Part shown: positions 37,737 through 59,234 of the stretch, piece after piece | Layout: each line of letters begins with the position of its first letter | Numbering within the stretch: the first letter of the stretch is position 1 | Source of the DNA: a virus | Lineage: Duplodnaviria; Caudoviricetes | Virus record (IMG/VR): IMGVR_UViG_3300033182_000816 | Location: 1 to 63,890 of that record | DNA: 63,890 bases | Reading direction: 5' to 3' (one strand) | The notes under the pieces: model-generated | The model's input: the letters and a program-made list of their open reading frames with translations, nothing else | Databases searched by the model: none | What the model was told of the DNA's origin: nothing | Translations under genes and position numbers: made by a program

Positions 37737-39580
37737 TGGCAAGAAAACATTTAACACCAGGAAATCCTCCCTTACTGTGGAATAGCGTCAAAGAAGCGTT
37801 TGATGACATTAATACTAACTTCCTCGAACTGTATGCATCAGTTGGAAGCGGTAATGCTATCGACTTAACACAATTAGAAACAAGTATGATTCCAGGAACC
37901 ACTGGAGATTATGTTTTAGGTCAATACGACAAACGTTGGAAAGAAGTTCATATAAATGAATACATTTCCGGTACAGGAGAAACAAACGGACTTTGGCTTG
38001 GATTAGCTCAAATAAAAGGTATGGGCTCAACAGTTGATCTTCCAATTAATTCAACTGTAGGCGGAGAACTAATTAATAATCCAGACTATACATTCTTTAA
38101 AGAAGTACAGGTTGACAACGACAGTGTTGTAGTTGCAAATGAAGTTGTAGACAGTATTAATTTGTTAAGCGGCACTGCTATTAGAATGTCTGTTGACAGT
38201 TCTGCTGAAAGCATTACTATTGATAACATTGGTGTTACAACCGCTATTGCCGGTCAAGGTATTAGTGTTAGCAGTGCAACAGGTGCAGTAACAGTTAGAA
38301 ATACAGGCGTACTAAGTTTAACAAACGGTAGTGTACTACCTCCAGGACTTGCATCTGGAAGTGGTATTAAAGCAAGTTCGTCTACAGGTAATATTGTATT
38401 AACAAATACAGGTGTAATTGATATTGACCAAGGTTACGGTATTACTGTTTCAAGAGATGACTCAACTGGTATTGTAACAATTACCAACTCTGCTCCAATG
38501 CAGGTTGCATTTAGAACACTTTATGTAACAGGAACAAATTTAGTTACTGATGGTATAGTTGCTGATAGCACATCGGATCAATTAAACTTTACAGCAGGAT
38601 ACGGTATGATTTTAACTCCAACTGCTGTTAATGATACATTAACATTTAGTATTGATCAACACATTGATATTTACGGTAGTGTTTTCGCTCCAGACAGTAG
38701 TGTAATGGTTGATACTATTGACCAGAAGATTAATGCCGTGGGAGGTTTTACTGGTGACTTAACCGGTGACGTAGTTGGTAACGTAACCGGTAACGTTCAA
38801 GGTGATGTAACTGGTGATGTAACTGGTAACGTTACAACTAATAGCATTGTAAGCACAAGCGGAAACATTGTAATAGAAGCAGACAACTATGTTACAATTA
38901 ATAGTGCCAATAACGGCCAACTTGAAATTGGAACAGCAAGTGGCGCAGGAAACGTCATCATTGGTAATAAAACCAACGGCACAGACGTTAACATCAATGG
39001 TGATGTTATTATGGATGCTGGAACTACTATTACTGGTGATTTAATTGGTGATGTAACTGGTAACATTAGTGGAACAGCACATACAGGTAACTTAACTGGT
39101 AATGTTACAGGTAATGTCGTAGGTAATGTAGTTGGTGACTTAACAGGTTCAGTATTTGCAGACGATAGCACAATGATTGTTAACAGCACTGATGGAACTG
39201 TTCATGCTAAGATTTATACACAATCTGTTGTACACAGCACACTCGAAAGTGTAGGTGGTTCAGATGCATCAAATCCTACAGCACTTGACTTAACTAAGTC
39301 AGTACAGGTACTTGATTCAGCAGACACCAACGATGATACATTTAGTTTAGCGGACGGGGAGGAAGGTCAAATTATGTACTTTGTTCCAAAGGGAACAAGC
39401 ACAGCAGGTATCTACATTATTGTAGATAATGCACGAAGATGGAACGCGACACAATTTGAAACTACGGCAACGTTTGCTTGGGTTCCATTTGATGTAGACG
39501 GCGGCACAAACTTTAAGAGTTTAGCAATGGCAGTGTTTACAGACGGTGCCTGGAACTTAGATGGTTACGTGGCAGGTTAA
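37736..39580 (+). CDS. Tail fibre protein
   Basis: AF..IN.NF.ELY N-terminus, G.GI.V repeats, G(D/N)(V/L)TG runs, GSVFADDS. Confidence 0.75.
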   Translation: MARKHLTPGNPPLLWNSVKEAFDDINTNFLELYASVGSGNAIDLTQLETSMIPGTTGDYVLGQYDKRWKEVHINEYISGTGETNGLWLGLAQIKGMGSTVDLPINSTVGGELINNPDYTFFKEVQVDNDSVVVANEVVDSINLLSGTAIRMSVDSSAESITIDNIGVTTAIAGQGISVSSATGAVTVRNTGVLSLTNGSVLPPGLASGSGIKASSSTGNIVLTNTGVIDIDQGYGITVSRDDSTGIVTITNSAPMQVAFRTLYVTGTNLVTDGIVADSTSDQLNFTAGYGMILTPTAVNDTLTFSIDQHIDIYGSVFAPDSSVMVDTIDQKINAVGGFTGDLTGDVVGNVTGNVQGDVTGDVTGNVTTNSIVSTSGNIVIEADNYVTINSANNGQLEIGTASGAGNVIIGNKTNGTDVNINGDVIMDAGTTITGDLIGDVTGNISGTAHTGNLTGNVTGNVVGNVVGDLTGSVFADDSTMIVNSTDGTVHAKIYTQSVVHSTLESVGGSDASNPTALDLTKSVQVLDSADTNDDTFSLADGEEGQIMYFVPKGTSTAGIYIIVDNARRWNATQFETTATFAWVPFDVDGGTNFKSLAMAVFTDGAWNLDGYVAG

Positions 39581-39593
39581 GGAGCGAAGATAA

Positions 39594-39863
39594 ATGAGTA
39601 AGCAAACAGTAAACATAGGTACAAGTGCTAACGATAGAACAGGTGATAATCTTCGTACTGCCTTTAATAAGATTAATGAAAACTTTACGGAGTTATACAA
39701 AGGCGTAATTACACAAACAGTTCCAACAACAAGTGCAGGAGCAACTGGCGATGTTGCAGGCATGATGGCTATCGATAACGATTACATTTATATTTGTGTT
39801 GCTGATTACGATAACAGTACACAGATTTGGAAAAGAATTCCATGGTCAGACGATTCGTGGTAA
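39594..39863 (+). CDS. Small fibre/baseplate adaptor protein
   Basis: gp9/gp10-like N-terminus; D.DYIYIC...IWKR C-terminal motif. Confidence 0.7.
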   Translation: MSKQTVNIGTSANDRTGDNLRTAFNKINENFTELYKGVITQTVPTTSAGATGDVAGMMAIDNDYIYICVADYDNSTQIWKRIPWSDDSW

Positions 39864-39877
39864 CAGGAGAGCGATAA

Positions 39878-40432
39878 ATGGCAGACTTACAAACAATTAA
39901 TATTGGTAACTTAGTAAATGACGGGCTTGGCGATGATTTGCGCACCGCTTTCCAAAAAGTAAATGCTAACTTCGAATCGCTCAATGCGGCATTAACTGTT
40001 ACAGCAAGTAACTTAGGTACAACAGGCGTAAATGTTTTTAAACAAAAAACAGATTCTAATTTAGAATTTAGAAAACTTGTTGCTGGCACAAAAATTTTAC
40101 TTGACGAGCAAGATAGTGGCATTGTTATTAGCTCAACAGTAGCTCAGGCATTTGAACGCATTGATACAAATGCAGGGGTTGTTCAAGCAAATGCATTTAA
40201 AAACATTACATTACAAGGCGGGGACGATATTGATGTAAGCGCATTAGGCGGTGTACTTACTGTTAACAACGTTATTCCTGTAACACATATTCTAACATAT
40301 TATGATTTTGGACCAATTGGCGGAGAGTACGAAAACTCAGTACAACTGGCATTACAATCGTCAAATATGGATTTTGGAACATTTACATATGAATCAATGT
40401 TAAACGTTGATTGCGGACCGTTGTTAGTATAA
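39878..40432 (+). CDS. Fibre/baseplate protein
   Basis: INIG...NDGLGDDLRTAFQKVN.NF; LEFRKLVAG. Confidence 0.7.
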   Translation: MADLQTINIGNLVNDGLGDDLRTAFQKVNANFESLNAALTVTASNLGTTGVNVFKQKTDSNLEFRKLVAGTKILLDEQDSGIVISSTVAQAFERIDTNAGVVQANAFKNITLQGGDDIDVSALGGVLTVNNVIPVTHILTYYDFGPIGGEYENSVQLALQSSNMDFGTFTYESMLNVDCGPLLV

Positions 40433-40443
40433 GGGGGTACTAA

Positions 40444-42078
40444 GTGGCAGTAACTTGGACAACAGCAGGCGGTGATTTAGGTACACTTGTTGAAAGACAA
40501 ATTGTTCAAATTCCACTCCAAGCAAGCTCTGATGTTGGCGATATTACATACAGTGTTATCGCTGGTGCACTACCTAACGGATTACGATTATCAGAGAACT
40601 TTATCGTAGGAAGCCCTACTGAAGTTAGTCGGTTTACTGAAAAACGGTTTGTTATAAGAGCAGACGACGGTGTAGATAAAAAAGATAGAACATTTAATTT
40701 AAAAATTGACGGTGCTGATATTCCTGAGTGGATCACAGAAGCAGGGTTCCTTAATGTTGGCCAAGGACAGGCATACTTTGTGCTTGACAACAGTCATGTT
40801 GATTTCCAACTTGAGGCGACCGACACTGATATTACAGCAGGAGAAACATTAAGTTATTACTTGGTTCCAAATGGCGGCTTGTTACCTGCAGGGTTATCAA
40901 TGTCCAGAGATGGTAAAATTTCTGGATTTACACAGCCTATATTCTTTACAGATTTTAATAACAACCCTAACGGAGCATACGATACACAATCATATGATAG
41001 TATGCCTCATGATATTGCACAAGCAAAGTCAAACGGTTTTGATACATTCTTTTATGATAATACAACATATGATTATAATGAGCCCAGTAGAACTCCTAAA
41101 AGATTAAGCAGAGTATATTCTTTTACGGTTGCTGTTACAGACGGTGTAAATGTTGTAACAGAAATATTTAAAATTTACGTTGTAACTGAAGAATTCTTAC
41201 AAGCAGATAATAGTATCTTACAAGTTGATACTAACTTATTCCAAGCAGACTCTGCTGCTGATAGAGTTCCATTCTGGGTTACAGATCCATATTTAGGCCG
41301 TTGGAGAGCAAACAACTTCATTACCATACGTTTAGATGTGTATGATCCACCAAGTTTACCAGGGACAATCACGTATTTCTTACTACCTGAAAATCCAGAC
41401 GGATCGCCGAGTGTGTTGCCACCGGGCATGGAAATTGATTCTATTACAGGAGATATTGCAGGTAAAGTTCCTTATCAGGCTGCTGTAACTAAAAACTATC
41501 AATTTACAATGCAGGCAGTAAACTTTCCAGCGGTACTTGCAGAAACAAATTACACACTAAGAGGCACGTGGAGTTCGACAACTACGTATGCTCAAAATGA
41601 TGCTGTTAAGTTTGACGGGTTTATTTACATATCTTTACAAGATCATAGAAACCAATTACCAACAGAGCCCAATAGTGCTTATTGGGAATTAGGTGTAACA
41701 ACTTCAGAAAGAACATTCTCAATTGATTTAATTGGTGAAATTGAAAGTGCTATACAATGGGTGTCAAACACTTCATTAGGTACAATCAAACCTAATCAAC
41801 CAAGTAAACTAAAAGTTGAAGCACAATCTGCAGGATACGGAAACAGAGTTAGTTTTGAAATTATTGACGGAAAACTACCACCAGGGCTACAATTTTTACC
41901 ATCGGGCGAAATTGTAGGCAAGGTTAGACAGTTTGCTACTACAGCAGAATTTGGTTTAACAAGAATTATCGAAGGTGGCGGCATAACAGTTGATATACCT
42001 TATATTGACACAATTAACTTTAGTAGTTCAGTCACATCATTTGACTCGCTAAATATTACATTCGACGGAGACTTTTAA
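40444..42078 (+). CDS. Ig-repeat (He_PIG-like) baseplate protein, N-terminal part, with inserted CBM5/12-like module
   Basis: Four G.LP.G(L/M) Ig repeats; W.STTTY..ND.V...G..Y...YW module at 41569-41691; fourth repeat incomplete. Confidence 0.7.
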   Translation: MAVTWTTAGGDLGTLVERQIVQIPLQASSDVGDITYSVIAGALPNGLRLSENFIVGSPTEVSRFTEKRFVIRADDGVDKKDRTFNLKIDGADIPEWITEAGFLNVGQGQAYFVLDNSHVDFQLEATDTDITAGETLSYYLVPNGGLLPAGLSMSRDGKISGFTQPIFFTDFNNNPNGAYDTQSYDSMPHDIAQAKSNGFDTFFYDNTTYDYNEPSRTPKRLSRVYSFTVAVTDGVNVVTEIFKIYVVTEEFLQADNSILQVDTNLFQADSAADRVPFWVTDPYLGRWRANNFITIRLDVYDPPSLPGTITYFLLPENPDGSPSVLPPGMEIDSITGDIAGKVPYQAAVTKNYQFTMQAVNFPAVLAETNYTLRGTWSSTTTYAQNDAVKFDGFIYISLQDHRNQLPTEPNSAYWELGVTTSERTFSIDLIGEIESAIQWVSNTSLGTIKPNQPSKLKVEAQSAGYGNRVSFEIIDGKLPPGLQFLPSGEIVGKVRQFATTAEFGLTRIIEGGGITVDIPYIDTINFSSSVTSFDSLNITFDGDF

Positions 42079-43766
42079 TGGCGAAAAGTATAATCTATAC
42101 AGGCTCACAATCAAACGACGGAACAGGTGATTCGCTCCGTAGCGGTGCAGCCAAAATTAATAACAACTTTACTGAGATTTATAACAAACTTGGTGATGGT
42201 GCAGAACTGCTGACAAAAGATTTAGACTTAGGTGAAAACAAGATTTACTTTAAAAATAGTGTTGCTACACCAACAGAATTAAATTCATTTAATGGATCAA
42301 AATATCAAGGAATGGTAATTCATGTAGAATCCGAAGGTGCATTATATTACGGCACTAACGGCACATGGAGAAAGATAATTACAGACACATCTGATGGTTT
42401 ACAAACGCCATATGTAAATCCATTAAGTACTGTTGCGTATACTGGTCGATTAACAGACTTAGGTATTGATGATGGTGTGCAAGATGATGTTCTTACTTCA
42501 AATGGCGACGGAACATTTTCTTTTAAGTCAGTATCAGCAGCAGCAAATACAAACGCTTTCACACTCGAAGGACAGGTTGGAAGTTATTACCTGAATTGGT
42601 CTAACTTTACTAATACTCCGTCTACTTTGCAAGGTTATGGAATTACAAATGCATTTAGTGGTAACTACAACGACTTGTCAGGAAAGCCTACACTTTTTGA
42701 TGGGGACTATAGTAGTTTAACAAACAAACCAACTATTCCTGAAGACTTATCAGATTTAACTGATACTACAGGATTAGTGTTTAGTAAAGATTATAATGAC
42801 CTTACAAACAAACCGATAATTCCAGCAACAATTGACGATTTAGGAGATGTTAGTTTGTCAGGAGTTGCATCAGGAAAAACTCTTGTATGGAATGGATTGC
42901 AATTTATTCCACAAACTCCATTCAGCGGTAGTTATTTAGATTTATCAAATACTCCTCAGTTTTCCGCAGTAGCAACATCCGGTGATTATGCAGATTTATC
43001 AAATACTCCTTCTGCGTTTGATGCTATTTCAATTACCAATGCTTCGAGCATAGGGTTCGCAGTTGGTGTTGGCATTAACGAATTTAGTAGCGATATTACT
43101 CTTGCTGGAAACAGTAACCTTGCTGTACCAACTGAAAAGGCTGTAAAGAATTATGTAGACACAGCAATTGCAGGGTTCAGTGCTGTAGGTAACTTTGACT
43201 TTACAGGTAGTACGATTAGTACTGCTGATAGTTCTGCTATTATAGTTCAACAAAGTGTGCAACTTTACAGTGATCTAAATGTTGGCAATAATGTTATTAT
43301 TGATAATGATTTAGACGTAGCGGGAAATCTTACAGCAGGAGAATTTCATTCTACAGGAACAGGATCTCCTCAGATTATTTCAGAAGGTGACATTACACTT
43401 ACTGCTCCGGGACAAATTAACTTAGACACACCAACATTAAGTGTTACATCGGTTTCTTTTAACGGTAACATTACATTTGTTAATAACTTAAACAACGTTA
43501 TGAGTGTTTCAAACGGTGGCACACAAATTGGTCTAAATGGATCAAATGTTGAGATTGGATCACTTAATTCAACTTGTACATTTGTCAACGGCACACAAAC
43601 TATCATGAATGTCTATCAATTAGTTGTTAGGACATCAGAACCACCAAGTCCAACTAACGGAATGGTTACTATTGCAGACGGAACAACTTGGAATCCAACA
43701 GGTACAGGCGTACAAACTATGGTAGTTCGTTTAGGTGGCGCTTGGAAAACAATAGCATCAGCATAA
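42078..43766 (+). CDS. Tail fibre protein
   Basis: gp9/gp10-like N-terminus; five (F/S)..(D/N/S)Y.(D/S)L...P repeats; INEFS.D...VPTE.AVK.YVD. Confidence 0.75.
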   Translation: MAKSIIYTGSQSNDGTGDSLRSGAAKINNNFTEIYNKLGDGAELLTKDLDLGENKIYFKNSVATPTELNSFNGSKYQGMVIHVESEGALYYGTNGTWRKIITDTSDGLQTPYVNPLSTVAYTGRLTDLGIDDGVQDDVLTSNGDGTFSFKSVSAAANTNAFTLEGQVGSYYLNWSNFTNTPSTLQGYGITNAFSGNYNDLSGKPTLFDGDYSSLTNKPTIPEDLSDLTDTTGLVFSKDYNDLTNKPIIPATIDDLGDVSLSGVASGKTLVWNGLQFIPQTPFSGSYLDLSNTPQFSAVATSGDYADLSNTPSAFDAISITNASSIGFAVGVGINEFSSDITLAGNSNLAVPTEKAVKNYVDTAIAGFSAVGNFDFTGSTISTADSSAIIVQQSVQLYSDLNVGNNVIIDNDLDVAGNLTAGEFHSTGTGSPQIISEGDITLTAPGQINLDTPTLSVTSVSFNGNITFVNNLNNVMSVSNGGTQIGLNGSNVEIGSLNSTCTFVNGTQTIMNVYQLVVRTSEPPSPTNGMVTIADGTTWNPTGTGVQTMVVRLGGAWKTIASA

Positions 43767-43775
43767 GGTTAAAAT

Positions 43776-45782
43776 ATGTCAGAAACTAAAGTCTATCAAA
43801 TTAGTGTTAACGAACCAGCAGACTGGGAAATTGTTCATGAGTTATTAACAAGAGACGGAACATTAGAAGATAATATTCCTCCTCGAGGCGTCGCGGCTAC
43901 TGATACAAAAGAACACAGTCCAACACGTTCATCATATTTAATGACTGAAGAGGAAGCACTTGAGTTAAGTAAGCACCCTAAAATACAGTTTGTTAATATT
44001 GATTACAACTATTATAAGGACGACTTTAAAGCGCCGCCGGAAGAACTTGCAACGTTAACACCTCAGTTGCAAGAACGATATCAAACAAATGTAAGAAACT
44101 ATAGAGAATTTGAGAATAGTAACCTGCTACCTAATCTGGCAGATTGGACGCCGGAATATAATAGATCCGGATATCAACTATTAAGGTGTCAGCAAAAACG
44201 AGATCCGTGGATTGCAGGATCGTTAGCAGATAATGCTGTTATCTCCAGTAACATAAGTCAATACGGAACCGGTAAAGATGTTGATGTAATAGTTGGTGAC
44301 GACGGTTGTTGGTTTGGCCATCCTGAATTTAATAGTGCAACCGATTATCCAAAACCAGATGGATATACAGGTGGCAATGTATTACCTGGGAACGGAACTT
44401 GTGATGTATTAGATTTATTATTAGATAGTCCGTATTATTTAGATCCTGCTTGGTTTAACGCTGATCCAGGTAACAGACTCGAAACACGCTGGGACGGAAC
44501 AATTGTTCCACAAGAGGCAGAAGCGTTAAATTGGTGGGCTCTTACCGCAAATAGATCTGCAGCGTTTTCTGCAATGGGTACTGTAGATTTAAGACTTAGT
44601 GGTTATACACGATCAAGAAATAATGGTTCTAATACTTCACTATCTACATATGGACAACACGGAACTCCGTGTTCTGCATTAACATTTGGAAGATCGCAAG
44701 GTTGGGCTTATAATGCTAATAAATGGTTTGTTCAGGTGTATAACTATTACGGAACAGACATTGAACCATACTTCGATCTTTTAAAATTATTCCATCAATA
44801 TAAACCAGTTAACACAAAATACGGAACAAAAAATCCCACTATTAACTCAAACAGTTGGGGATATCGTGCAAGTAAAGGTGTTACAAACGGATACTATCAT
44901 CATAGGAATGTAGCGACCCAATACGGTGGTGTTAGTAACGAACCTGACTTTATTTCACATTTAGGGCAAACAGGTGACGGGGGACGTTGGAAATCAGAAA
45001 TGTACGATAACAGTTACACTCAAGCCGGTAAAGAAATGATCGATGCTGGTGTAATTTTTGTTGTCGCTTCTGGTAACTCTAACCAAAAACAAGTTGGAGA
45101 CACACATCCTGATTGGGAGAACCGTGTAAGTGCAAACGAAACTGACGGTGTTTATGATAGTACGTTTTACGAGTTTGGCATTGCTACTACAGGTACAACA
45201 AACAGGCGTGGGTTTCCTCAACAGTTAGGAAAGTACACAGAAGCCGGCCATGTTGTTTATCCTGCTATTAATGTAGGTGCTCTCGACGACGAGTGGAAAA
45301 CTGGTAAAGAATGTAAAGTTAACTACAGCGACCGAGGTGAACAAATTGATTTGTTTGCGCCTGCCGACGGGACACTTGCTGCTAATCACAGTTACGCCTC
45401 AGAAGGTTGGTATCCGGTAGCATATCCGGGACTGACTATTTCTGCAACCGATTGTGCGTTTGGTGGTACATCAGCAGCGTGTCCGGTAGCAACAGGGTTT
45501 CTTGCAACTGTATTAGAACATAATAGAGGATGGACGTGGCAAGATATAAAGAATTGGCTTGCTTCTTTAGATGATCAAGATGCGGCTGACTTTTATGTAG
45601 GGACAGAAACTACAACACCAACATCATCTAATTGGTTCGATTACAATAGTTTAGAAGGTGCATCTCCGAGAGTAATATATCAAGGAAACATTCAAATTTC
45701 TTCGAGAATGATTGCTTCAAGAAAAACTATTTCAGGTAGCGGGTTACGCATCAGCGGAAACTTAACAATAAAAGGCGGATAA
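43776..45782 (+). CDS. Subtilisin-like (S8) serine peptidase, probably virion-associated
   Basis: VDVIVGDDG (Asp), HGTPC (His), VASGN (oxyanion Asn), FGGTSAACP (Ser). Confidence 0.88.
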   Translation: MSETKVYQISVNEPADWEIVHELLTRDGTLEDNIPPRGVAATDTKEHSPTRSSYLMTEEEALELSKHPKIQFVNIDYNYYKDDFKAPPEELATLTPQLQERYQTNVRNYREFENSNLLPNLADWTPEYNRSGYQLLRCQQKRDPWIAGSLADNAVISSNISQYGTGKDVDVIVGDDGCWFGHPEFNSATDYPKPDGYTGGNVLPGNGTCDVLDLLLDSPYYLDPAWFNADPGNRLETRWDGTIVPQEAEALNWWALTANRSAAFSAMGTVDLRLSGYTRSRNNGSNTSLSTYGQHGTPCSALTFGRSQGWAYNANKWFVQVYNYYGTDIEPYFDLLKLFHQYKPVNTKYGTKNPTINSNSWGYRASKGVTNGYYHHRNVATQYGGVSNEPDFISHLGQTGDGGRWKSEMYDNSYTQAGKEMIDAGVIFVVASGNSNQKQVGDTHPDWENRVSANETDGVYDSTFYEFGIATTGTTNRRGFPQQLGKYTEAGHVVYPAINVGALDDEWKTGKECKVNYSDRGEQIDLFAPADGTLAANHSYASEGWYPVAYPGLTISATDCAFGGTSAACPVATGFLATVLEHNRGWTWQDIKNWLASLDDQDAADFYVGTETTTPTSSNWFDYNSLEGASPRVIYQGNIQISSRMIASRKTISGSGLRISGNLTIKGG

Positions 45783-46697
45783 ATGGCAATTGGCGAAATA
45801 ACACAATTCGACGGCGGCAACACAACATTCGATTTAGATTATCGCTTTACTGTTCGTGCGAGAGACTTTTCTGGTGTAGCTCAGAGAGAAAAAGATTTTA
45901 CTATATCTATACAGTCAGATACATCTATAAGTTATGCAAATGTTTTTGTTAAAGCAATGCAGAAAAAAGAAAAACGTCTAAATTGGTTTGACTTTATTAC
46001 AGATGCTACTATTTTTAAACCTAACGATATTTACAGATACGGTGACCGAAACTTTGGTGTACAAGCAGAATTAAAAATGCTTTTATTTGCAGGCATTGAA
46101 AGTGTAGATGCTGTTAGTTTTGTACAAGCACTGAGTAAAAATCATTACAGAAAACGTTTACAGTTTGGCGAAGTAAAACTTGCAAAAGGCAGAGATCCTG
46201 AAACTCAAGAAACGTTATATGAAGCAATTTATGTAGATATTATTGACCCTTACGAAAAAGAAGGAAAAAGTATTAGCGAAACTGTAAACCTATCGGATAA
46301 AATAGAAAGTAAGGTATTAGTAAGTTATGATGCTATTAAAATTGATAGCGACACTCCGTTAGTAAGTGACAGCGATCATCAAAGAATCTTTCCTAACTCT
46401 ATTAAAAATATGAGAAGAAGAGTTAAGAACGTAGGGGAGAGAGATAGAGAGTTCTTGCCATTATGGATGCGTAGTATTCAGGACAACACATTTGTAGAGC
46501 CTGGTTACACCAAAGCACTCGTTTTATGTTATGCTAAACCCGGTACAGGGTTAAATATTATGGCGAGAATTAGAGCATCTCAGTTTGATTTTAAAACGAT
46601 TGACTTTGAAGTAGATCGTTATATCATAGATATTATTGACGGGAATATTGAAGATAAATACCTTGCATTCCCTCAACGTGGAGAAAAAATACCGTGA
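45783..46697 (+). CDS. Baseplate protein, apparent C-terminal part of the 40444..42078 Ig-repeat gene
   Basis: Starts with FDGGNTTFD and YRFTVRARD (the missing end of an Ig repeat); IYR..D..FG, PNSI.NMR, LPLWM.S.Q. Confidence 0.65.
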   Translation: MAIGEITQFDGGNTTFDLDYRFTVRARDFSGVAQREKDFTISIQSDTSISYANVFVKAMQKKEKRLNWFDFITDATIFKPNDIYRYGDRNFGVQAELKMLLFAGIESVDAVSFVQALSKNHYRKRLQFGEVKLAKGRDPETQETLYEAIYVDIIDPYEKEGKSISETVNLSDKIESKVLVSYDAIKIDSDTPLVSDSDHQRIFPNSIKNMRRRVKNVGERDREFLPLWMRSIQDNTFVEPGYTKALVLCYAKPGTGLNIMARIRASQFDFKTIDFEVDRYIIDIIDGNIEDKYLAFPQRGEKIP

Positions 46698-47278
46698 GTA
46701 GCAATATAAATTATTTAAGTATTAATGAAAACTTTCCTGTGGCAGGTCAAGACAACGACACGCAGGTTTTTAGAGATAACTTTAACACTATCAAAAATAG
46801 TCTTAGAGAAGGTCAAACTGAAATTAGTGACCTACAGGAATATACAGCAAAAGTAAATGCAGATAATGATTTTAATCTTTATAAAATTCAAAATGCATTA
46901 TTACAGAACAACAGAACACAGAAGTTTGACGCTGGCGCTGTTTCGGCAAGTCCTACAACTATTGATTTCCAAAACGGTAGTTATCAAATTTATCGTGTAA
47001 GTGCTAATATCACAATGGACTTTTTAAACTTCCCAGGAGACCCTGTTTATACAGCAGAGATTACTCCTATTGGCGCAGGCGGAGTGAGATTAGAACTTTA
47101 CAGCACTGGTGGAAACTTTAATATTACATTCCAAACTTCAGGTGCAACAGTAATTAAGAAAGACGCAAGTTTTCCTTCAATCCTTACTTTAACTTCAGCA
47201 TCAGAACCTGTGTTCATTGATGTATGGAGACACAGTGCAGACGTTATCTATATGCGTTATTTAGGCACATTTGCATAA
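46694..47278 (+). CDS. Virion structural protein
   Basis: FPVAGQDNDTQVFRDNF..IK N-terminus; within the tail module; late box upstream. Confidence 0.6.
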   Translation: MSSNINYLSINENFPVAGQDNDTQVFRDNFNTIKNSLREGQTEISDLQEYTAKVNADNDFNLYKIQNALLQNNRTQKFDAGAVSASPTTIDFQNGSYQIYRVSANITMDFLNFPGDPVYTAEITPIGAGGVRLELYSTGGNFNITFQTSGATVIKKDASFPSILTLTSASEPVFIDVWRHSADVIYMRYLGTFA

Positions 47279-47520
47279 TGCTACACCCACTTGTTGATGA
47301 CCTATCCGAGCTCAAAGATTCTGAAGTAGAAGAAAAACTTCAAGAATTGAATAAAAAATACTTCACGGCTTCTCGGTTAGGCAATAATCAGGTCTTGACA
47401 CAACTGTCAACTCTTGTTACAATATACAGAGAAGAACTACAAAAACGTTATCTTGCTCAGAAAATTGCATTACAAGAGAACGACGGGGAAGATCTGGATA
47501 ACTTAATCAATGTGGACTAA
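47278..47520 (+). CDS. Hypothetical protein
   Basis: TAATG coupling; 80 aa helical. Confidence 0.55.
   Translation: MLHPLVDDLSELKDSEVEEKLQELNKKYFTASRLGNNQVLTQLSTLVTIYREELQKRYLAQKIALQENDGEDLDNLINVD
47395..47423 (+). promoter_or_regulatory. sigma70-type promoter with an inverted repeat over the -35
   Basis: TTGACA-N17-TACAAT; TTGACA-caac-TGTCAA palindrome 47395-47410. Confidence 0.6.
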
Positions 47521-47980
47521 AACAAACACGTTAGAACAATTAACAAACGGAATTGTAAGGCATGGTACTCAAATTATTGAGAACTGTTTAATTTCTGATG
47601 ATTTTAAACAATACGTCGATCGTGTTTATGACGAACATTTAAATTACCCTGTTCCTCCTACTGAAATTGATCACACTCAATGGTATATGCCTGCTGAGTA
47701 TAGAAAAATGGATATCTATGGATTCTTAGAGCAGCAATGTAATACTCAGGAAGAGCGCATTCGTTTAGATCAAGAATATCAAGAATTTGAACGTAGAGAT
47801 CTTGTTCTTCTTCTAAAACAAATGAAATATATAGTAGATACATTGAGAAAAAATAATATTGTTTGGGGTGTAGGCCGCGGATCGAGCGTGGCAAGTTTAG
47901 TTCTTCATTTATTAGGGGTTCACAAGATTAATCCGATTAAATACAATATACCAATTGAAGAATTTTTTAAGGAGATCTAA
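47510..47980 (+). CDS. dnaE: DNA polymerase III alpha (family C) stand-alone fragment
   Basis: R...E...F......YIVD......GVGRGSSVASLVL.LLG...INP.KY. Confidence 0.8.
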   Translation: MWTKTNTLEQLTNGIVRHGTQIIENCLISDDFKQYVDRVYDEHLNYPVPPTEIDHTQWYMPAEYRKMDIYGFLEQQCNTQEERIRLDQEYQEFERRDLVLLLKQMKYIVDTLRKNNIVWGVGRGSSVASLVLHLLGVHKINPIKYNIPIEEFFKEI

Positions 47981-50028: not shown

Positions 50029-50217
50029 GTGAGCATCGTAAATTCAAAGCAGGCAGTTGCGTGTATGCATGACATTGCACGTTACGTAGAACATCATATA
50101 GGCAGTGGCTCGTTATCATCAGATATTCGCCAAGTGGCGGATAGGCTACACGAAGTATCTACAAAAGAACTTCGTAAACCAGTTCCAACAGCAGCAAGTT
50201 TAAAGGCAAAACAATGA
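50029..50217 (+). CDS. Hypothetical protein
   Basis: SD AAGGAG, GTG start. Confidence 0.55.
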   Translation: MSIVNSKQAVACMHDIARYVEHHIGSGSLSSDIRQVADRLHEVSTKELRKPVPTAASLKAKQ

Positions 50218-51131
50218 AAGAGTTATGGGTAGAAAAACACCGTCCTAAGACACTCGACGGTTACGTGTTTAGAGATTTAGCACAAAAGAAACAAATTGAA
50301 GGTTGGGTCAAAGACAAAAGTATCCCACATCTGTTATTGAGTGGTAGTGCAGGTCTTGGTAAAACAACTCTTGCTAAAATCCTTGTTAACGAACTTGAAA
50401 TCCAAGAACACGATGTATTAGAAATCAATGCATCGCGTACAAACTCAGTAGACGATGTTCGTGACAAGATTACTAACTTTGTACAAATGATTAGTTGGGG
50501 ATCACCATTTAAGGTTGTGCTACTCGACGAGGCTGATTATTTGTCGCCAAACGCACAGGCTGCATTACGTGGGGTTATGGAAGAATACCATGCGACTTCA
50601 CGTTTTATTCTAACGTGTAACTATCCTAATAGAATTATTCCAGCGATCCATTCACGTTGTCAAGGTTTCCACGTAGAGAAACCAGATATGGGTGAATTTG
50701 TAACTCGTGTAGCAAGTGTATTAGCGCAAGAAGAAGTAAGTTTCAAAGACGAAGATTTGTTAACTTACATTGAAGTAACCTATCCAGATCTACGTAAGTG
50801 TCTTAATATGGTTCAACAAAATGTACACGACAACCAATTAGATCCTCCTCACAAAGGAGACGCAGGTGAGGCTGATTGGAAGTTTGAAATGGTTGAACTG
50901 TTTAAGGCAGGTAAGATTCAAGAAGCACGTAAGATGCTTTGTGGAAAGATTCGTGCAGAAGAAATGGAAGATGTGTATCGTTGGCTGTATGATCATTTAG
51001 AAATTTTTGGAAGTGAGGATCAACAAGATAAAGCGGTGCTAATTATTAAGCAAGGATTAGTAGATCATACGCTTGTTGTAGATCCAGAGATTAACTTAGC
51101 CGCAGTATTAATTAAATTAGGAAGGTTATAA
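50214..51131 (+). CDS. Sliding-clamp loader AAA+ subunit (RFC small / T4 gp44-like)
   Basis: WVEKHRP, GSAGLGKTT, EINAS, LLDEAD, AQAALR, SRC. Confidence 0.93.
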   Translation: MKELWVEKHRPKTLDGYVFRDLAQKKQIEGWVKDKSIPHLLLSGSAGLGKTTLAKILVNELEIQEHDVLEINASRTNSVDDVRDKITNFVQMISWGSPFKVVLLDEADYLSPNAQAALRGVMEEYHATSRFILTCNYPNRIIPAIHSRCQGFHVEKPDMGEFVTRVASVLAQEEVSFKDEDLLTYIEVTYPDLRKCLNMVQQNVHDNQLDPPHKGDAGEADWKFEMVELFKAGKIQEARKMLCGKIRAEEMEDVYRWLYDHLEIFGSEDQQDKAVLIIKQGLVDHTLVVDPEINLAAVLIKLGRL

Positions 51132-56885: not shown

Positions 56886-59234
56886 ATGATAGAACCAAGT
56901 ACATCACTACAAGCCTGCTTCGATCACGCTGTTGAAACAGCAAAAGAGTTAAAGCACGAACACATCACAATAGAACATATTGTTCATAGTATTGTGAGTC
57001 ATAACGAAGCATACAACGCTCTAAAAGAATACGGCGCCGATGTTGAATATATCAGGCAAAACATTGACCATTATCTAAGAAATAATCTTAACGATATTAT
57101 AACCGACGAAGAGAATTTTAAACCTACAAAAACAAATGCTGTAGAACGTGTATTGAATAGATGTTTTACACAAGTTTTGTTTAGCGGTCGTTCAAAGATG
57201 GAAATTGCTGATGTATTGATTAGTGTTCTATCAGAAAAGAATAGTTTCGCATATTACTTCTTAACCAAAGGTGGTGTTTCTAAAGAAAAATTTGCTGCAC
57301 ACTTCCAGCAAGTTATCGAAGGTGATCCAGAAGTAGATGCAGACGACACTCTTCCTGCAAATCTAAATCAAAGTCAGGTTGATAAGATCATTAATAAATT
57401 TTGCACCAACCTATCAGTAAAAGCAAAACAACGTGAAATTGATCCTGTTATTGGACGAGATAATGAATTAGAAGAAATTGAACTTGTACTTGCACGACGC
57501 AATAAATGTAATGTACTAATGGTAGGTGATCCGGGTGTAGGTAAAACTGCTATTGCAGAAGGTCTTGCACTTAAAATCCTACAGAAGAAAGTACCTAAGT
57601 TTATTCAAGACCATACTGTTATTAGTTTAGATGTTAGCTCGGTTGTTGCTGGGTCTAAGTATAGAGGCGATTTTGAAGAAAGAATGAAAGCGATCCTCGG
57701 CGCACTGGAGCGCAAAGGAAAAGTTATCTTGTTCATCGACGAAGCACATATGATGAATGGCGCAGGCGCTGGCGGCAGTGACAAGTCAAATGACATGGCT
57801 AATATGCTAAAGCCTGCTCTTACTAAGGGTAAAATTAAATTAATTGCATCTACTACTTGGGAAGAATATCGCAAATACTTTGAAAGCGATAGAGCACTTA
57901 TGCGTCGATTCCAGCGTGTTACCATTGACGAACCAAGCAAAGAATTAACTGTTAAAATTATTAAAGGTATCCGAAAGTATTACGAAAAACATCATGGTGT
58001 AAAAATTACAAATGCTGCGGTAGAACAGGCTGTAAAACTTTCTATCAAATACATGGCTGACAAGAAATTGCCAGACAAAGCAATTGATATTATTGACTGT
58101 GCGTCAGCCCGTTATAAATTAACCGACGACGAAACTATGGAAGGCGTACAACAAATTGTTGACGTAGAACAGATTAGTTTTGAACTTTCTAAAATGGTTA
58201 ATATGCCTGTAGAAACTGTTGCAGAAAAAGAAACACAAAAACTTGAAAAGTTAGAAGAAAATCTAAAACAAGCAGTATACGGACAAGATCACGCAGTTGA
58301 TAACATTTTAGATAAAATTTTTGTATCACAGTCAGGCATGAAGGCTCCTAATAAACCTGTTGGTACATTTTTATTCTTAGGGCCCACAGGATGTGGTAAA
58401 ACAGAAACTGCTAAACAACTTGCAGATAAAATGGGTTTAGAGTTGTTACGATTTGATATGTCAGAGTATCAAGAGAAACATAGTGTAGCAAGACTAATTG
58501 GTGCTCCTCCGGGCTATGTAGGTTATGAAGATGACGCTGGTCAACTTATTACTAAACTGCAAGAACATCCTAATGCTGTATTGCTACTTGACGAAATTGA
58601 AAAGTCGCACAAAGACGTTTCAAATATTTTGTTAGGATTGATGGATAACGGCTTTGTTACAGGAGGCAACGGCAAGCAAGCAGACGCTCGTAACTGTATC
58701 CTTATTATGACATCTAACTTAGGTGCTGCTGACAATGAACTTAACACTATTGGATTTGGTGACCTTGAACGCACCGGAGAGGACGATAAAGCAATTAAGA
58801 AATTCTTCCCGCCAGAGTTCCGTAATAGACTTGATGCTATTATTAAGTTCGATAAACTTTCTCAGGATGTTGTACAAAACATTGTAGGTAAATTTATTGG
58901 CGAACTCAATGATCAACTTAAAGATAAGAATATCGAAATCATTCCAGATCAAGATACAATTAAGTGGTTAGCAAAACACGGGTACAACAAGAAGATGGGT
59001 GCTCGCCCGTTAGCACGATTAATTGACGAGAAAATTAAATCGCCGCTCTCACGCAGAGTTCTGTTTGGTGACTTAATTGACGGCGGACGTGTTGATGTTT
59101 CTATTGTAGACGACGAACTTTCGTTTGCTGTCACTGAGATGCCTAAACCATTAACCAAAGAAGAGAGAAAGGCTATGAAGGCAGCGATAAAGGAAGAGAA
59201 AATTGCTAACGACACCACAGACGACGAGTCGTAA
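56886..59234 (+). CDS. clpA: ClpA-type Hsp100 ATPase
   Basis: Clp N domain, GDPGVGKT, FIDEAH, LPDKAID, GPTGCGKT, RFDMSEY, LLDEIEK, IGF loop, GARPL; no ClpB M domain. Confidence 0.93.
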   Translation: MIEPSTSLQACFDHAVETAKELKHEHITIEHIVHSIVSHNEAYNALKEYGADVEYIRQNIDHYLRNNLNDIITDEENFKPTKTNAVERVLNRCFTQVLFSGRSKMEIADVLISVLSEKNSFAYYFLTKGGVSKEKFAAHFQQVIEGDPEVDADDTLPANLNQSQVDKIINKFCTNLSVKAKQREIDPVIGRDNELEEIELVLARRNKCNVLMVGDPGVGKTAIAEGLALKILQKKVPKFIQDHTVISLDVSSVVAGSKYRGDFEERMKAILGALERKGKVILFIDEAHMMNGAGAGGSDKSNDMANMLKPALTKGKIKLIASTTWEEYRKYFESDRALMRRFQRVTIDEPSKELTVKIIKGIRKYYEKHHGVKITNAAVEQAVKLSIKYMADKKLPDKAIDIIDCASARYKLTDDETMEGVQQIVDVEQISFELSKMVNMPVETVAEKETQKLEKLEENLKQAVYGQDHAVDNILDKIFVSQSGMKAPNKPVGTFLFLGPTGCGKTETAKQLADKMGLELLRFDMSEYQEKHSVARLIGAPPGYVGYEDDAGQLITKLQEHPNAVLLLDEIEKSHKDVSNILLGLMDNGFVTGGNGKQADARNCILIMTSNLGAADNELNTIGFGDLERTGEDDKAIKKFFPPEFRNRLDAIIKFDKLSQDVVQNIVGKFIGELNDQLKDKNIEIIPDQDTIKWLAKHGYNKKMGARPLARLIDEKIKSPLSRRVLFGDLIDGGRVDVSIVDDELSFAVTEMPKPLTKEERKAMKAAIKEEKIANDTTDDES

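Follow-up and report, generated by a model that had tools for sequence, protein, structure and literature searches.

The window analysed here, 63,890 nucleotides long, is the entire IMG/VR virus record IMGVR_UViG_3300033182_000816 (CheckV completeness, 18%), and the phage carrying the split gene described below is large and myovirus-like. The locus consists of two halves of an Ig-repeat gene, A and B, which are separated by a tail fibre gene and a peptidase gene and flanked by the syntenic genes U and D:

39878..40432, plus strand: gene U, upstream syntenic gene, 184 aa, with a gp9/10-N-like N-terminus; directly 5' of the fused gene in relatives.
40444..42078, plus strand: half A, 544 aa; He_PIG Ig-like repeats 1-3 in full, then repeat 4 as its N-terminal two-thirds, a 37-residue tail and a stop.
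41716..41964, plus strand: incomplete Ig domain 4 of A (residues 425-507), the last two strands missing.
41965..42075, plus strand: tail of A (residues 508-544, IIEGGG... to ...ITFDGDF), with the left FD motif inside it at 42031-42075.
42078..43766, plus strand: first gene of the insert, encoding a 562-aa tail fibre whose N-terminus has a T4 gp9/gp10-like adaptor motif.
43776..45782, plus strand: second gene of the insert, encoding a 668-aa peptidase of the S8 subtilase family, full length by comparison with relatives.
45783..46697, plus strand: half B, 304 aa; opens with a leader of 5 residues and the right FD motif, followed by the last strands of Ig domain 4 and a conserved 250-residue body.
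45798-45842, plus strand: right FD motif in B.
about 45840-45920, plus strand: last two strands of Ig domain 4, in B.
46694..47278, plus strand: gene D, downstream syntenic gene, 194 aa; directly 3' of the fused gene in relatives.

Repeats 1-3 of half A are complete, each carrying G.LP.G...I.G and closed by a strand of the RFVIRADD, YSFTVAVTD or YQFTMQAVN type, and the He_PIG profile (PF05345) matched A in three stretches (E 2.6e-19; 69.9 bits against a Pfam gathering threshold of 24). Repeat 4 (GKLPPGLQFLPSGEIVGKV) lacks the closing strand, as the sequence-only reading had claimed: the last 120 residues of A (425-544) covered only positions 6-68 of the 96 in the profile, in a match below the Pfam cut-off (E 0.0069), and no complete domain of about 96 positions is formed by this repeat in one chain. 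The missing strand was likewise found where that reading had placed it, at the opening of the ORF at 45783, the N-terminus of B being MAIGEITQFDGGNTTFDLDYRFTVRARD. The closing strands of Ig domain 4 are assigned to B on account of homology to gp329 of Agrobacterium phage Atu_ph07, in which the He_PIG match (profile positions 30-95) runs contiguously across the break point. A CBM5/12-like stretch in A stayed below threshold. Together A and B comprise 848 codons without stops or frameshifts, and among the columns invariant in 56 fused homologues A retained 103 of 106 and B all 72 (the leave-one-out minimum of this retention among the fused homologues themselves was 0.968).

The body of B (residues 47-297) adopts, by structure comparison of its predicted model, a two-lobed 2H phosphoesterase-like fold. 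The best VIA-align match was Usb1 (Z 11.6, rmsd 3.6, 172 aligned residues), and all 20 matches with Z of at least 7 were 2H-fold proteins, the next match having a Z of 4.6; support from Foldseek was weaker (E 1.6e-3). The hallmark of the 2H phosphoesterase superfamily is a pair of catalytic H-x-T/S-x motifs. No such pair was found in the body of B, since no His was invariant among the 50 aligned sequences: H121 occurs in 38 of them, followed by K/Y and then R, and H199 in 11.

In related phages, as had been expected, the place between these flanking genes is taken by one uninterrupted homologue (815-1434 aa), usually a chain of about 820 aa, and the order U-[AB]-D is conserved. The split arrangement was found in none of 170 related loci and none of 122 distinct ORFs, and every complete locus held one continuous ORF. 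Among the IMG/VR loci with a relative of B, A and B formed one complete ORF in 87 of 90, one more was cut by the contig edge but still in frame, and the other two were edge-cut peroxidase variants. Metagenome loci were fused in 64 of 80 cases and edge-cut in the remaining 16, with none split.

The gene is interrupted within the fourth He_PIG Ig-like domain, where a long loop of low model confidence ends, which agrees with the proposed interruption in mid-domain. In the alignment, the end of A and the start of B share 15 columns immediately ahead of the FT(I/V)(K/R)A(R/K)D strand. For the corresponding segment of a fused homologue (L064), AF2 modelling gave block-mean pLDDT values of 76-88 for the Ig4 strands at residues 19-75, values below 50 for residues 89-118, and 83-87 for the strands at 120-144. 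At the same loop position another relative (L051, 1434 aa) carries a complete An_peroxidase domain in frame (E 2.3e-105), and this uptake of a whole domain marks the Ig4 loop as a site where tail proteins accept modules.

An FD...TFD motif of 15 aa is present at both junctions (A 530-544; B 6-20), with 8 of 15 residues and 26 of 45 bases identical by hand count and a longest exact run of 8 nt. The gene boundaries are as tight as first described: the A stop and the fibre start share bases (TAATG, 42076-42080), the start of B follows the S8 stop without a gap (TAAATG, 45780-45785), and the fibre and S8 genes are separated by 9 nt. Purine-rich SD-like stretches lie 6-9 nt upstream of all four starts (A, fibre, S8, B), and this packing on one strand suggests that the four genes are probably co-transcribed and translationally coupled. 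Searches of these four ORFs with Pfam and PHROGs revealed no transposase, homing-endonuclease or intein families, and an Rfam scan of 40000-47500 yielded only three sub-threshold, unrelated chance matches and no intron features, in line with the sequence-only reading.

The fibre ORF at 42078 matched PF07880 over residues 5-50 (E 3e-7; 31.1 bits against a cut-off of 25) and phrog_677 (E 1.7e-16), and the ORF at 43776 matched PF00082 (E 1.6e-14; 54.3 bits against a cut-off of 21.8) and phrog_9158 (E 1.1e-92), with 283 S8 relatives in IMG/VR that include full-length matches (1-666). Among relatives, the fibre-S8 pair is found at several distinct positions. In podovirus-like contigs (L100/L102, L129, L137, L144, L171) it follows a gene of 155 aa, and the window fibre and that of L100 share 38% identity over 488 aa. 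The C-terminus of this 155-aa gene gave a short, ungapped BLASTP alignment with residues 508-543 of A (17 of 36 identical; E 1e-4, one comparison), and tblastn gave a match at 41965-42072. Moreover, the TRI.EG.G signature was present in all stand-alone A proteins and in none of 115 fused ORFs. From these similarities, the left recombination junction most likely lies about 37 codons upstream of the A stop (GLTR, then IIEG at nt 41965), and the last 37 codons of A, with the left FD motif, were most likely imported together with the cassette. An origin of the FD motif of A as a target-site duplication is disfavoured by the homology of the tail to the 155-aa gene.

Protein searches revealed eight further stand-alone A cluster representatives of 542-545 aa with the same type of tail (TRI.EG.G plus an FD tail ending at the stop), one 5'-partial protein with this tail, and five stand-alone B proteins of 302-309 aa that start 5-14 residues before the FD motif. 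The lengths of the halves recur on independent contigs, and the split alleles have diverged to 55-82% identity yet kept them. P0124 (A, 82% identical) and P0173 (S8, 78% identical) each occur on two contigs, the longest of 7061 nt, and P0132 (A) and P0045 (B) are each reported on a 9018-nt contig. Judged by protein length, M start, shared tail and matching contig sizes, the split is not a one-off, the tail-marked allele being present in several metagenomic lineages; two pattern scans of IMG/VR for split-type motifs returned no matches. The AU test rejected monophyly of nine split A bodies (p 0.005), and A and B of the window were each sister to the fused L064 (SH-aLRT 92 and 99). Since the split bodies do not form one clade, their history needs recombinational spread of the junction region or repeated events.

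Considering this evidence, we favour, with a probability of roughly 0.75, the joint reading that one ancestral chain was split by an imported fibre-S8 cassette and that A and B reassemble non-covalently by strand sharing, presumably within the virion. The baseplate location and essential role proposed from the sequence are assumptions. The ancestral gene would have encoded one chain of about 820 aa, with He_PIG Ig-like repeats 1-4 followed by the conserved C-terminal body, and its repeat 4 would have contained a long flexible loop with an FD...TFD motif preceding the last two strands. A foreign operon fragment may have recombined into this loop, the presumed direction of transfer being into the Ig-repeat gene, and would have brought the last ~37 codons and stop of a small fibre-preceding gene, the fibre gene, the S8 peptidase gene, and then a start codon, its ribosome-binding site and a small number of codons. 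From the partial gene at the 5' end, half A could thereby have gained a new C-terminus and stop, and the 3' end of the cassette could have given half B its own start. The N-terminal beta-hairpin of B (residues ~17-46) would then supply the two strands that Ig domain 4 of A lacks, completing the fold in donor-strand fashion and restoring a two-part protein.

Strand complementation, as proposed from the sequence, agrees with the complex prediction and stands as a predicted property: the median ipSAE was 0.66 (runs 0.69, 0.25 and 0.66) against 0.00 for the best of three controls. The predicted interface sets the partial Ig domain of A (residues 435-496) against residues 17-46 of B, with contacts of A 471-476 to B 22-26 and of A 443-447 to B 39-42. 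Of 80 solved complexes, 58 attained the mark for this score, as did 2 of 110 mismatched pairs; this calibration is only rough here because our own alignments were used. Weak points of the prediction are a partner pLDDT of 43-48 and a between-run contact agreement stated as 'at least 0%'. Halves of a split domain can score high merely because the model knows the Ig fold.

It is improbable that the split is real and the halves no longer cooperate, with B alone functional in the virion and A a free or decorative Ig-repeat protein, or the reverse. The B module is found behind varied N-terminal parts (He_PIG repeats; in Atu_ph07 and Phosso, S8 plus He_PIG; or peroxidase) and so behaves as an autonomous module, and AF2 models B by itself with confidence (mean pLDDT 85.1), its N-terminal strands folding as a hairpin. 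However, invariant residues are kept in both halves, the cut Ig domain included, the partial Ig domain of A and the two strands of B are present in every split allele seen, and the predicted interface is specific when set against its controls. Decay of one or both halves, with an intact fused copy in the unsequenced ~80% of the genome supplying the function, would fit the low completeness of the record and the presence of only one B match in the whole 63.9-kb window, but it is very unlikely given the uninterrupted codons, the retained invariant columns, the unchanged lengths of alleles at 55-82% identity and the location of the halves at the syntenic U-[ ]-D locus. An assembly chimera or sequencing artefact, conceivable for a metagenome-derived record, can hardly be credited: the reading frame is kept at each junction, where stops, starts and SD-like sites are properly placed; JGI, ENA and Logan assemblies supply stand-alone A and B proteins broken at the same points; and P0124 and P0173 resemble a second genome, ~80% identical, with a stand-alone A and an S8 gene. 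Covalent rejoining, through an intron, trans-splicing split inteins or DNA excision between the FD-motif repeats, is suggested by the direct repeats on both sides of the insert and by the fractured genes with split inteins described from metagenomes (PMC2677866), yet is scarcely plausible, as the insert is filled by two closely spaced conserved ORFs, Rfam shows no intron, Pfam found no Hint or intein domain in A or B, the 5-residue leader that precedes the FD motif of B could not accommodate an intein fragment, and the repeats share just 26 of 45 bases, with no exact run above 8 nt.

Split genes in phages are known mainly as enzymes cut by homing endonucleases. The split tail gene described here widens gene fission to a structural protein cut within an Ig domain by a putatively foreign operon fragment, whose partial end genes would supply the stop for A and the start for B and would thus offer a simple route to viable fission. 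Among the T4-like genes-in-pieces described in PMC2988022, nrdA of Aeromonas phage Aeh1 is split by mobE, the T4 topoisomerase 39/60 by mobA, and gene 43 is split in phages 25 and 44RR, with reassembly of two polypeptides shown for NrdA and gp43. The likeness to these cases is a gene that is contiguous in relatives and present as two ORFs cut by inserted DNA. In the cases described there, the split gene encodes an enzyme and the intervening DNA is a free-standing homing endonuclease gene or an untranslated spacer (PMC2988022), whereas here a structural Ig-repeat protein is cut by a 3.7-kb fibre and peptidase fragment that also appears to donate a new C-terminal tail to the upstream half. No homing endonuclease (GIY-YIG, HNH or LAGLIDADG) was found in the insert, for which Pfam and PHROGs gave only gp9/10-N fibre and Peptidase_S8.

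In chaperone-usher pili, incomplete Ig folds are completed by donor-strand complementation. The predicted arrangement would resemble this in that a C-terminally incomplete Ig-like domain is completed by the N-terminal extension of another polypeptide; in contrast to the pili, two strands rather than one are supplied, the parts arose by fission of one gene, and there is no chaperone or usher and no pilin homology. As the split allele persists and has diversified, it may serve as a naturally occurring case in which beta-strand complementation of a virion protein can be put to the test. Among the closest known layouts are the gp329 'protease' of Atu_ph07 (YP_009612994-region record NC_042013, 1251 aa) and the S8 family peptidase of Sinorhizobium phage Phosso (1287 aa), which share with the present locus the He_PIG repeats, a C-terminal module after them that has 30% identity to B (E 9e-24), and the association of an S8 peptidase with that module. 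Unlike here, a single chain unites the N-terminal S8 part, the Ig repeats and the B module in both, and the last Ig domain is unbroken, with a short loop.

The Ig4 loop site is also relevant to engineered display sites on phage tails and to the spread of host-recognition cassettes between unrelated phage families, which are described as sharing such modules (e.g. PMC10579305). The present case is alike in that a fibre and accessory cassette with an adaptor tail occurs in podovirus-like contigs and in the myovirus-like group, and differs in that the insertion point of the cassette lay within a coding sequence, which was thereby split. A tentative extension, doubtful when its parts are taken together, is that the FD-repeat tail could be a portable docking peptide that receives the product of the fibre gene immediately downstream, so that the tail with its stop, the fibre and the S8 gene might form a self-contained host-range cassette moving between podoviruses and jumbo myoviruses and grafting a fibre-attachment site onto the upstream protein at each landing place. 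In the present lineage, landing in the Ig loop would then have produced a two-piece, donor-strand-like protein plus an extra tail fibre. Contexts fitting this extension are the 155-aa podoviral gene, the split-type A proteins, and L009/L010, in which the B protein has an extra C-terminal extension directly before the fibre gene.

The 39.9-47.3 kb region of the window is tightly packed with genes, on the + strand throughout. Two of its ORFs, designated A and B, are the halves of a protein that is encoded by one gene in relatives, and they are separated by a fibre gene and an S8 peptidase gene and flanked by the syntenic genes U (upstream) and D (downstream).

Genes of the A-B locus and two genes downstream of the tail module (window coordinates)
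39878-40432, + strand: U, 184 aa, gp9/10-N-like N-terminus
40444-42078, + strand: A, 544 aa, He_PIG Ig-like repeats
42078-43766, + strand: fibre, 562 aa, T4 gp9/gp10-like N-terminus
43776-45782, + strand: S8, 668 aa, subtilase-family peptidase
45783-46697, + strand: B, 304 aa, no match to a Pfam or PHROG family
46694-47278, + strand: D, 194 aa, no family found
50214-51131: clamp-loader gene, downstream of the tail module
56886-59234: ATP-dependent protease homologue, 782 aa, downstream of the tail module (phrog_4871, E 2.5e-248)

Pfam searches assigned three He_PIG stretches to A (E 2.6e-19), a T4 gp9/gp10 N-terminal domain to the fibre, and Peptidase_S8 to ORF 43776, in agreement with the PHROGs assignments (fibre families for ORF 42078; phrog_9158 for the peptidase, E 1.1e-92). 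Every repeat string quoted in the sequence-only reading was found in the window, and the coupled starts and stops it described are present, with the stop of A overlapping the fibre start (TAATG) and the stop of S8 abutting the ATG of B (TAAATG). Purine runs resembling Shine-Dalgarno sites precede all four starts (A, fibre, S8, and B). Within 39500-47600, the terminator scan detected no terminator-like site on the + strand, and promoter-like sites were no more frequent than in shuffles. As the window spans an entire IMG/VR virus record, estimated by CheckV to be 18% complete, and related contigs reach 341-353 kb, the phage is probably jumbo myovirus-like.

A single contiguous homologue had been predicted for related phages, and all complete related loci indeed carried the fused gene, with none of 170 split. 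The IMG/VR scan with B returned 10 loci, and in the eight with full upstream sequence a single ORF of 815-887 aa, flanked by U and D homologues, contains the counterparts of both A and B. Moreover, among the best 80 of 478 relatives in the IMG/VR profile scan, A and B were in a single open frame in 80/80 (79 complete and one cut by a contig edge), and the best 80 of 374 relatives in the metagenome scan, which probably include some of the same contigs, comprised 64 fused loci, 16 cut by contig edges, and no split locus. Altogether, 122 distinct B-containing ORFs were present across these IMG/VR and metagenome loci. In the protein collection (1062 representatives at E <= 1e-3), the B module was otherwise nearly always located at the C-terminus of longer proteins (700-1650 aa), as judged from the best 150. 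Searches of cultured phages by tblastn yielded no match for A, and the only matches for B were Atu_ph07 (two records) and Phosso, both cultured jumbo rhizobiophages. Gp329 of Atu_ph07 (1251 aa; L001 5238-8993) and its Phosso counterpart (1287 aa; L002 5151-9014) each combine an S8 domain, three He_PIG stretches, and a contiguous C-terminal module 30% identical to B in one polypeptide of ~1250 aa adjoining tail-fibre genes. Because relatives and more distant homologues are contiguous, the fused state is the prevalent form and, judged against the outgroups, the ancestral one.

The S8-B association recurs in different architectures, since S8, He_PIG, and the B module are one polypeptide in Atu_ph07 and Phosso. 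The main text of PMC6102473, in which virion status was looked for, makes no mention of gp329. The Atu_ph07 fusion of S8, Ig repeats, and B raised the possibility that S8 and B are the true split gene; this was rejected for the lineage of the window, as the S8 of relatives is full length (a match over 1-666), C-terminal tail included, and is fused to B in 0/170 related loci.

To locate the cut, fused homologues were aligned with A and B as separate rows, revealing that the last 15 residues of A and residues 6-20 of B occupy the same columns, which in fused proteins hold the conserved TFDGG.T(S/T)FD(K/R)KF directly before the strand FT(I/V)(K/R)A(R/K)D. In the AF2 model of the corresponding segment of a fused homologue, L064 (mean pLDDT 54.8), the start of Ig repeat 4 was confident (strands within 19-75, block means 76-88), residues 89-118 fell below 50 without secondary structure, and two confident strands followed (120-129 and 135-144, block means 83-87); its Foldseek neighbours were cadherin and Ig domains. 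Furthermore, the last 120 residues of A matched only positions 6-68 of the 96-position He_PIG profile, and in Atu_ph07 the He_PIG match continues unbroken through the corresponding point as far as position 95, the loop there being short. Given the alignment, the L064 model, and the partial He_PIG match of A, the cut is placed at the end of a predicted long, probably flexible loop within Ig repeat 4. In a 1434-aa homologue (L051 5593-9897), a complete animal-haem-peroxidase domain (PF03098, Pfam E 2.3e-105) is inserted in frame in this loop, and a peroxidase also occurs there in the edge-cut loci L009 (3-1655) and L010 (1-1323) and in the protein P0086, so this loop is a permissive insertion site. 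A phage tail protein carrying a peroxidase is unusual in itself.

Regarding the inserted genes, S8 has 283 relatives in IMG/VR and >1400 in the protein collection, and because these are full length, the C-terminus of S8 is no remnant of an Ig domain. In 80 loci around S8 homologues (L094-L173), S8 almost always came immediately after a fibre gene, and the conserved last ~100 residues of these fibres resemble residues 375-480 of the window fibre. The fibre-S8 pair was found on both myovirus-like and podovirus-like contigs. Ten loci from the window's own phage group have it upstream of U, whereas L150, L151, L159, and L009/L010 have it between the fused gene and D; elsewhere its contexts are unrelated. 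Some S8 copies are 865-883 aa long with an extra insert of ~200 residues. Putative roles for S8 include fibre maturation, a chaperone-like function, or depolymerase activity, all of which are possible.

Five podovirus-like contigs carrying tail-tube and terminase genes (L100/L102, L129, L137, L144, and L171) have the order 155-aa ORF, fibre, S8, with a fibre 38% identical to that of the window over 488 aa (E 1e-90). The C-terminal end of the 155-aa ORF (IIEGTPEQVFINTNVETNFSATGFTFDSDTITFDGE) aligns without gaps to that of A (IIEGGGITVDIPYIDTINFSSSVTSFDSLNITFDGDF) with 17/36 identities (BLASTP E 1e-4, a single comparison), and the remainder of the 155-aa protein had no match in the window. Moreover, among 115 fused ORFs with G(L/M)TR, I.EG.G followed in none and 113 go on with F, while I.EG.G follows G(L/M)TR in every stand-alone A protein. 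The simplest reading of these sequence comparisons is that the incoming DNA would extend from inside a gene of the 155-aa type, through the fibre and S8, to just past the start codon of the gene after S8, with both ends joined in frame. The left junction would then lie at ~nt 41965 rather than at the stop of A, and the left FD motif (FD...TFD) would have been imported rather than duplicated at the target; which way the DNA moved, and from which donor, is likewise inferred. A target-site duplication was set aside for that motif, as the whole 37-residue tail matches the C-terminus of a putative donor gene and is missing from 115/115 fused ORFs. In addition, the B module of L009 (1500-1660) and L010 (1170-1325) bears an extra C-terminal extension of ~50 residues, ending in an FD-repeat tail (…FDSETASFDNAAITWDRGF) that resembles split-type A tails such as that of P0131. 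As a fibre gene and an S8 gene immediately follow this tail, the extension suggests that the FD-repeat tail may travel with the fibre cassette. The 3' half of S8 (window 45000-45750) has a G+C of 0.41-0.45, versus 0.34-0.39 in the flanking genes, as would fit a cassette that came from a foreign source.

Stand-alone forms of both halves were detected elsewhere. A search for stand-alone B limited to 167-532 aa gave 153 matches, and 5 of the 17 examined among the 120 matches listed were stand-alone B proteins of 302-309 aa (P0009, P0016, P0045, P0055, and P0068), each starting with M and reaching the FD motif 5-14 residues on. A search with A 200-544 (length window 189-604 aa) gave 57 matches, including eight cluster representatives of 542-545 aa (P0124, P0127, and P0130-P0135), all with an FD-repeat tail and ending 31-37 residues past TRI.EG.G; one 5'-partial protein shares this ending. 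Independent contigs from the JGI, ENA, and Logan assemblies show these lengths again. P0124 (82% identical to A) and P0173 (an S8 78% identical) are each reported from two contigs, the longest of 7061 nt, and P0132 (A type) and P0045 (B type) each from a 9018-nt contig, suggesting from the matching contigs that the same gene order may exist elsewhere. More distant stand-alone B-like proteins were P0409 (311 aa) and P0317 (405 aa). The IMG/VR scan with P0045 found fused loci only, two degenerate-pattern scans for split-type motifs gave no match in IMG/VR, and L175 (cut inside B) was the only locus close to P0045 among the best 80 metagenome loci.

Trees of the A body (tail columns left out) and of the B module agreed in placing all split genes in one well-supported subclade that also includes fused genes, with the window and P0124 grouping as sister to L064, a fused gene. 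An AU test rejected monophyly of the nine split A bodies (p 0.005, for a group set by trait and a test run after the tree was seen). Since tail signature and split state coincide without exception, it is likely that the junction-plus-cassette region spread among related phages via homologous recombination within the adjoining A and B sequence, or that some phages regained fused alleles; several separate fissions, each importing the same tail, seem less likely. The split can be regarded as an allele that has a history of its own.

Both halves are conserved: at columns invariant in 56 fused homologues, A keeps 103/106 and B 72/72, within the leave-one-out range of the fused genes (minimum 0.968). 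Complex prediction with A 425-544 and B, using separate alignments, scored 0.69, 0.25, and 0.66 (median 0.66), and all three controls scored 0.00; the score mark was reached by 58/80 solved complexes and 2/110 mismatched pairs, counts that apply only approximately here owing to the use of own alignments. By this benchmark the model supports binding of A to B and does not show it. Partner pLDDT was 43-48 and contact agreement between runs was 'at least 0%'. Confident contacts joined A 471-476 (FEIIDG) to B 22-26 (FTVRA) and A 443-447 to B 39-42, the predicted pattern if the first two strands of B complete the Ig sandwich of A. Since the two halves derive from a divided Ig fold, part of the score may stem from what the model has learned about Ig domains in general. 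With a deeper alignment, B alone reached a mean pLDDT of 85.1, and its residues 13-45 formed a hairpin. A and B are unlikely to be rejoined as RNA, DNA, or protein, since no intron (Rfam) and no intein family (Pfam) was found and the flanking FD repeats, though similar, are identical at only 26/45 bases with a longest exact run of 8 nt. Reassembly of A and B via strand complementation is thus the preferred reading of the models, with a probability of roughly 0.7.

The closest parallels come from T4-like phages, whose genes-in-pieces (nrdA of Aeh1, genes 39/60 of T4, and gene 43 of phages 25 and 44RR) are described in PMC2988022 as encoding enzymes that are split by homing endonuclease insertions and whose parts reassemble. 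Like these, the A/B gene is contiguous in relatives and split in the window; unlike them, it is split without an endonuclease, and it encodes a structural protein cut mid-domain. The predicted mechanism of reassembly resembles donor-strand complementation, known from pili. In a non-exhaustive search of the literature on split phage genes, He_PIG, and Atu_ph07, none of the titles and abstracts listed described a He_PIG tail protein that is split.

The conserved body of B (residues 47-297, window 45921-46673) has a 2H-phosphoesterase-like predicted fold, matching Usb1 best (Z 11.6, VIA-align), followed by CPDase, LigT, AKAP18, poxvirus cGAMP PDE, and phage Acb1 (all Z >= 7), with the next match at Z 4.6. 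The two H-x-T/S motifs are absent, and none of the columns of 50 aligned sequences holds an invariant His. In A, a sub-threshold CBM_5_12 carbohydrate-binding match (E 0.0042) covers residues 375-402 (window 41566-41650), and several PHROG 'tail fiber' matches map to this same stretch of ~45 residues, which separates Ig repeats 3 and 4. A gp9/gp10-like motif (…IG…NDGTGD.LR..F.K.N.NF.ELY or a variant) opens at least five neighbouring ORFs (window 29424, 39594, 39878, 42078, and 46694; also 37736), including that of a 2770-aa giant protein, which points to a putative protein family using one common attachment domain.
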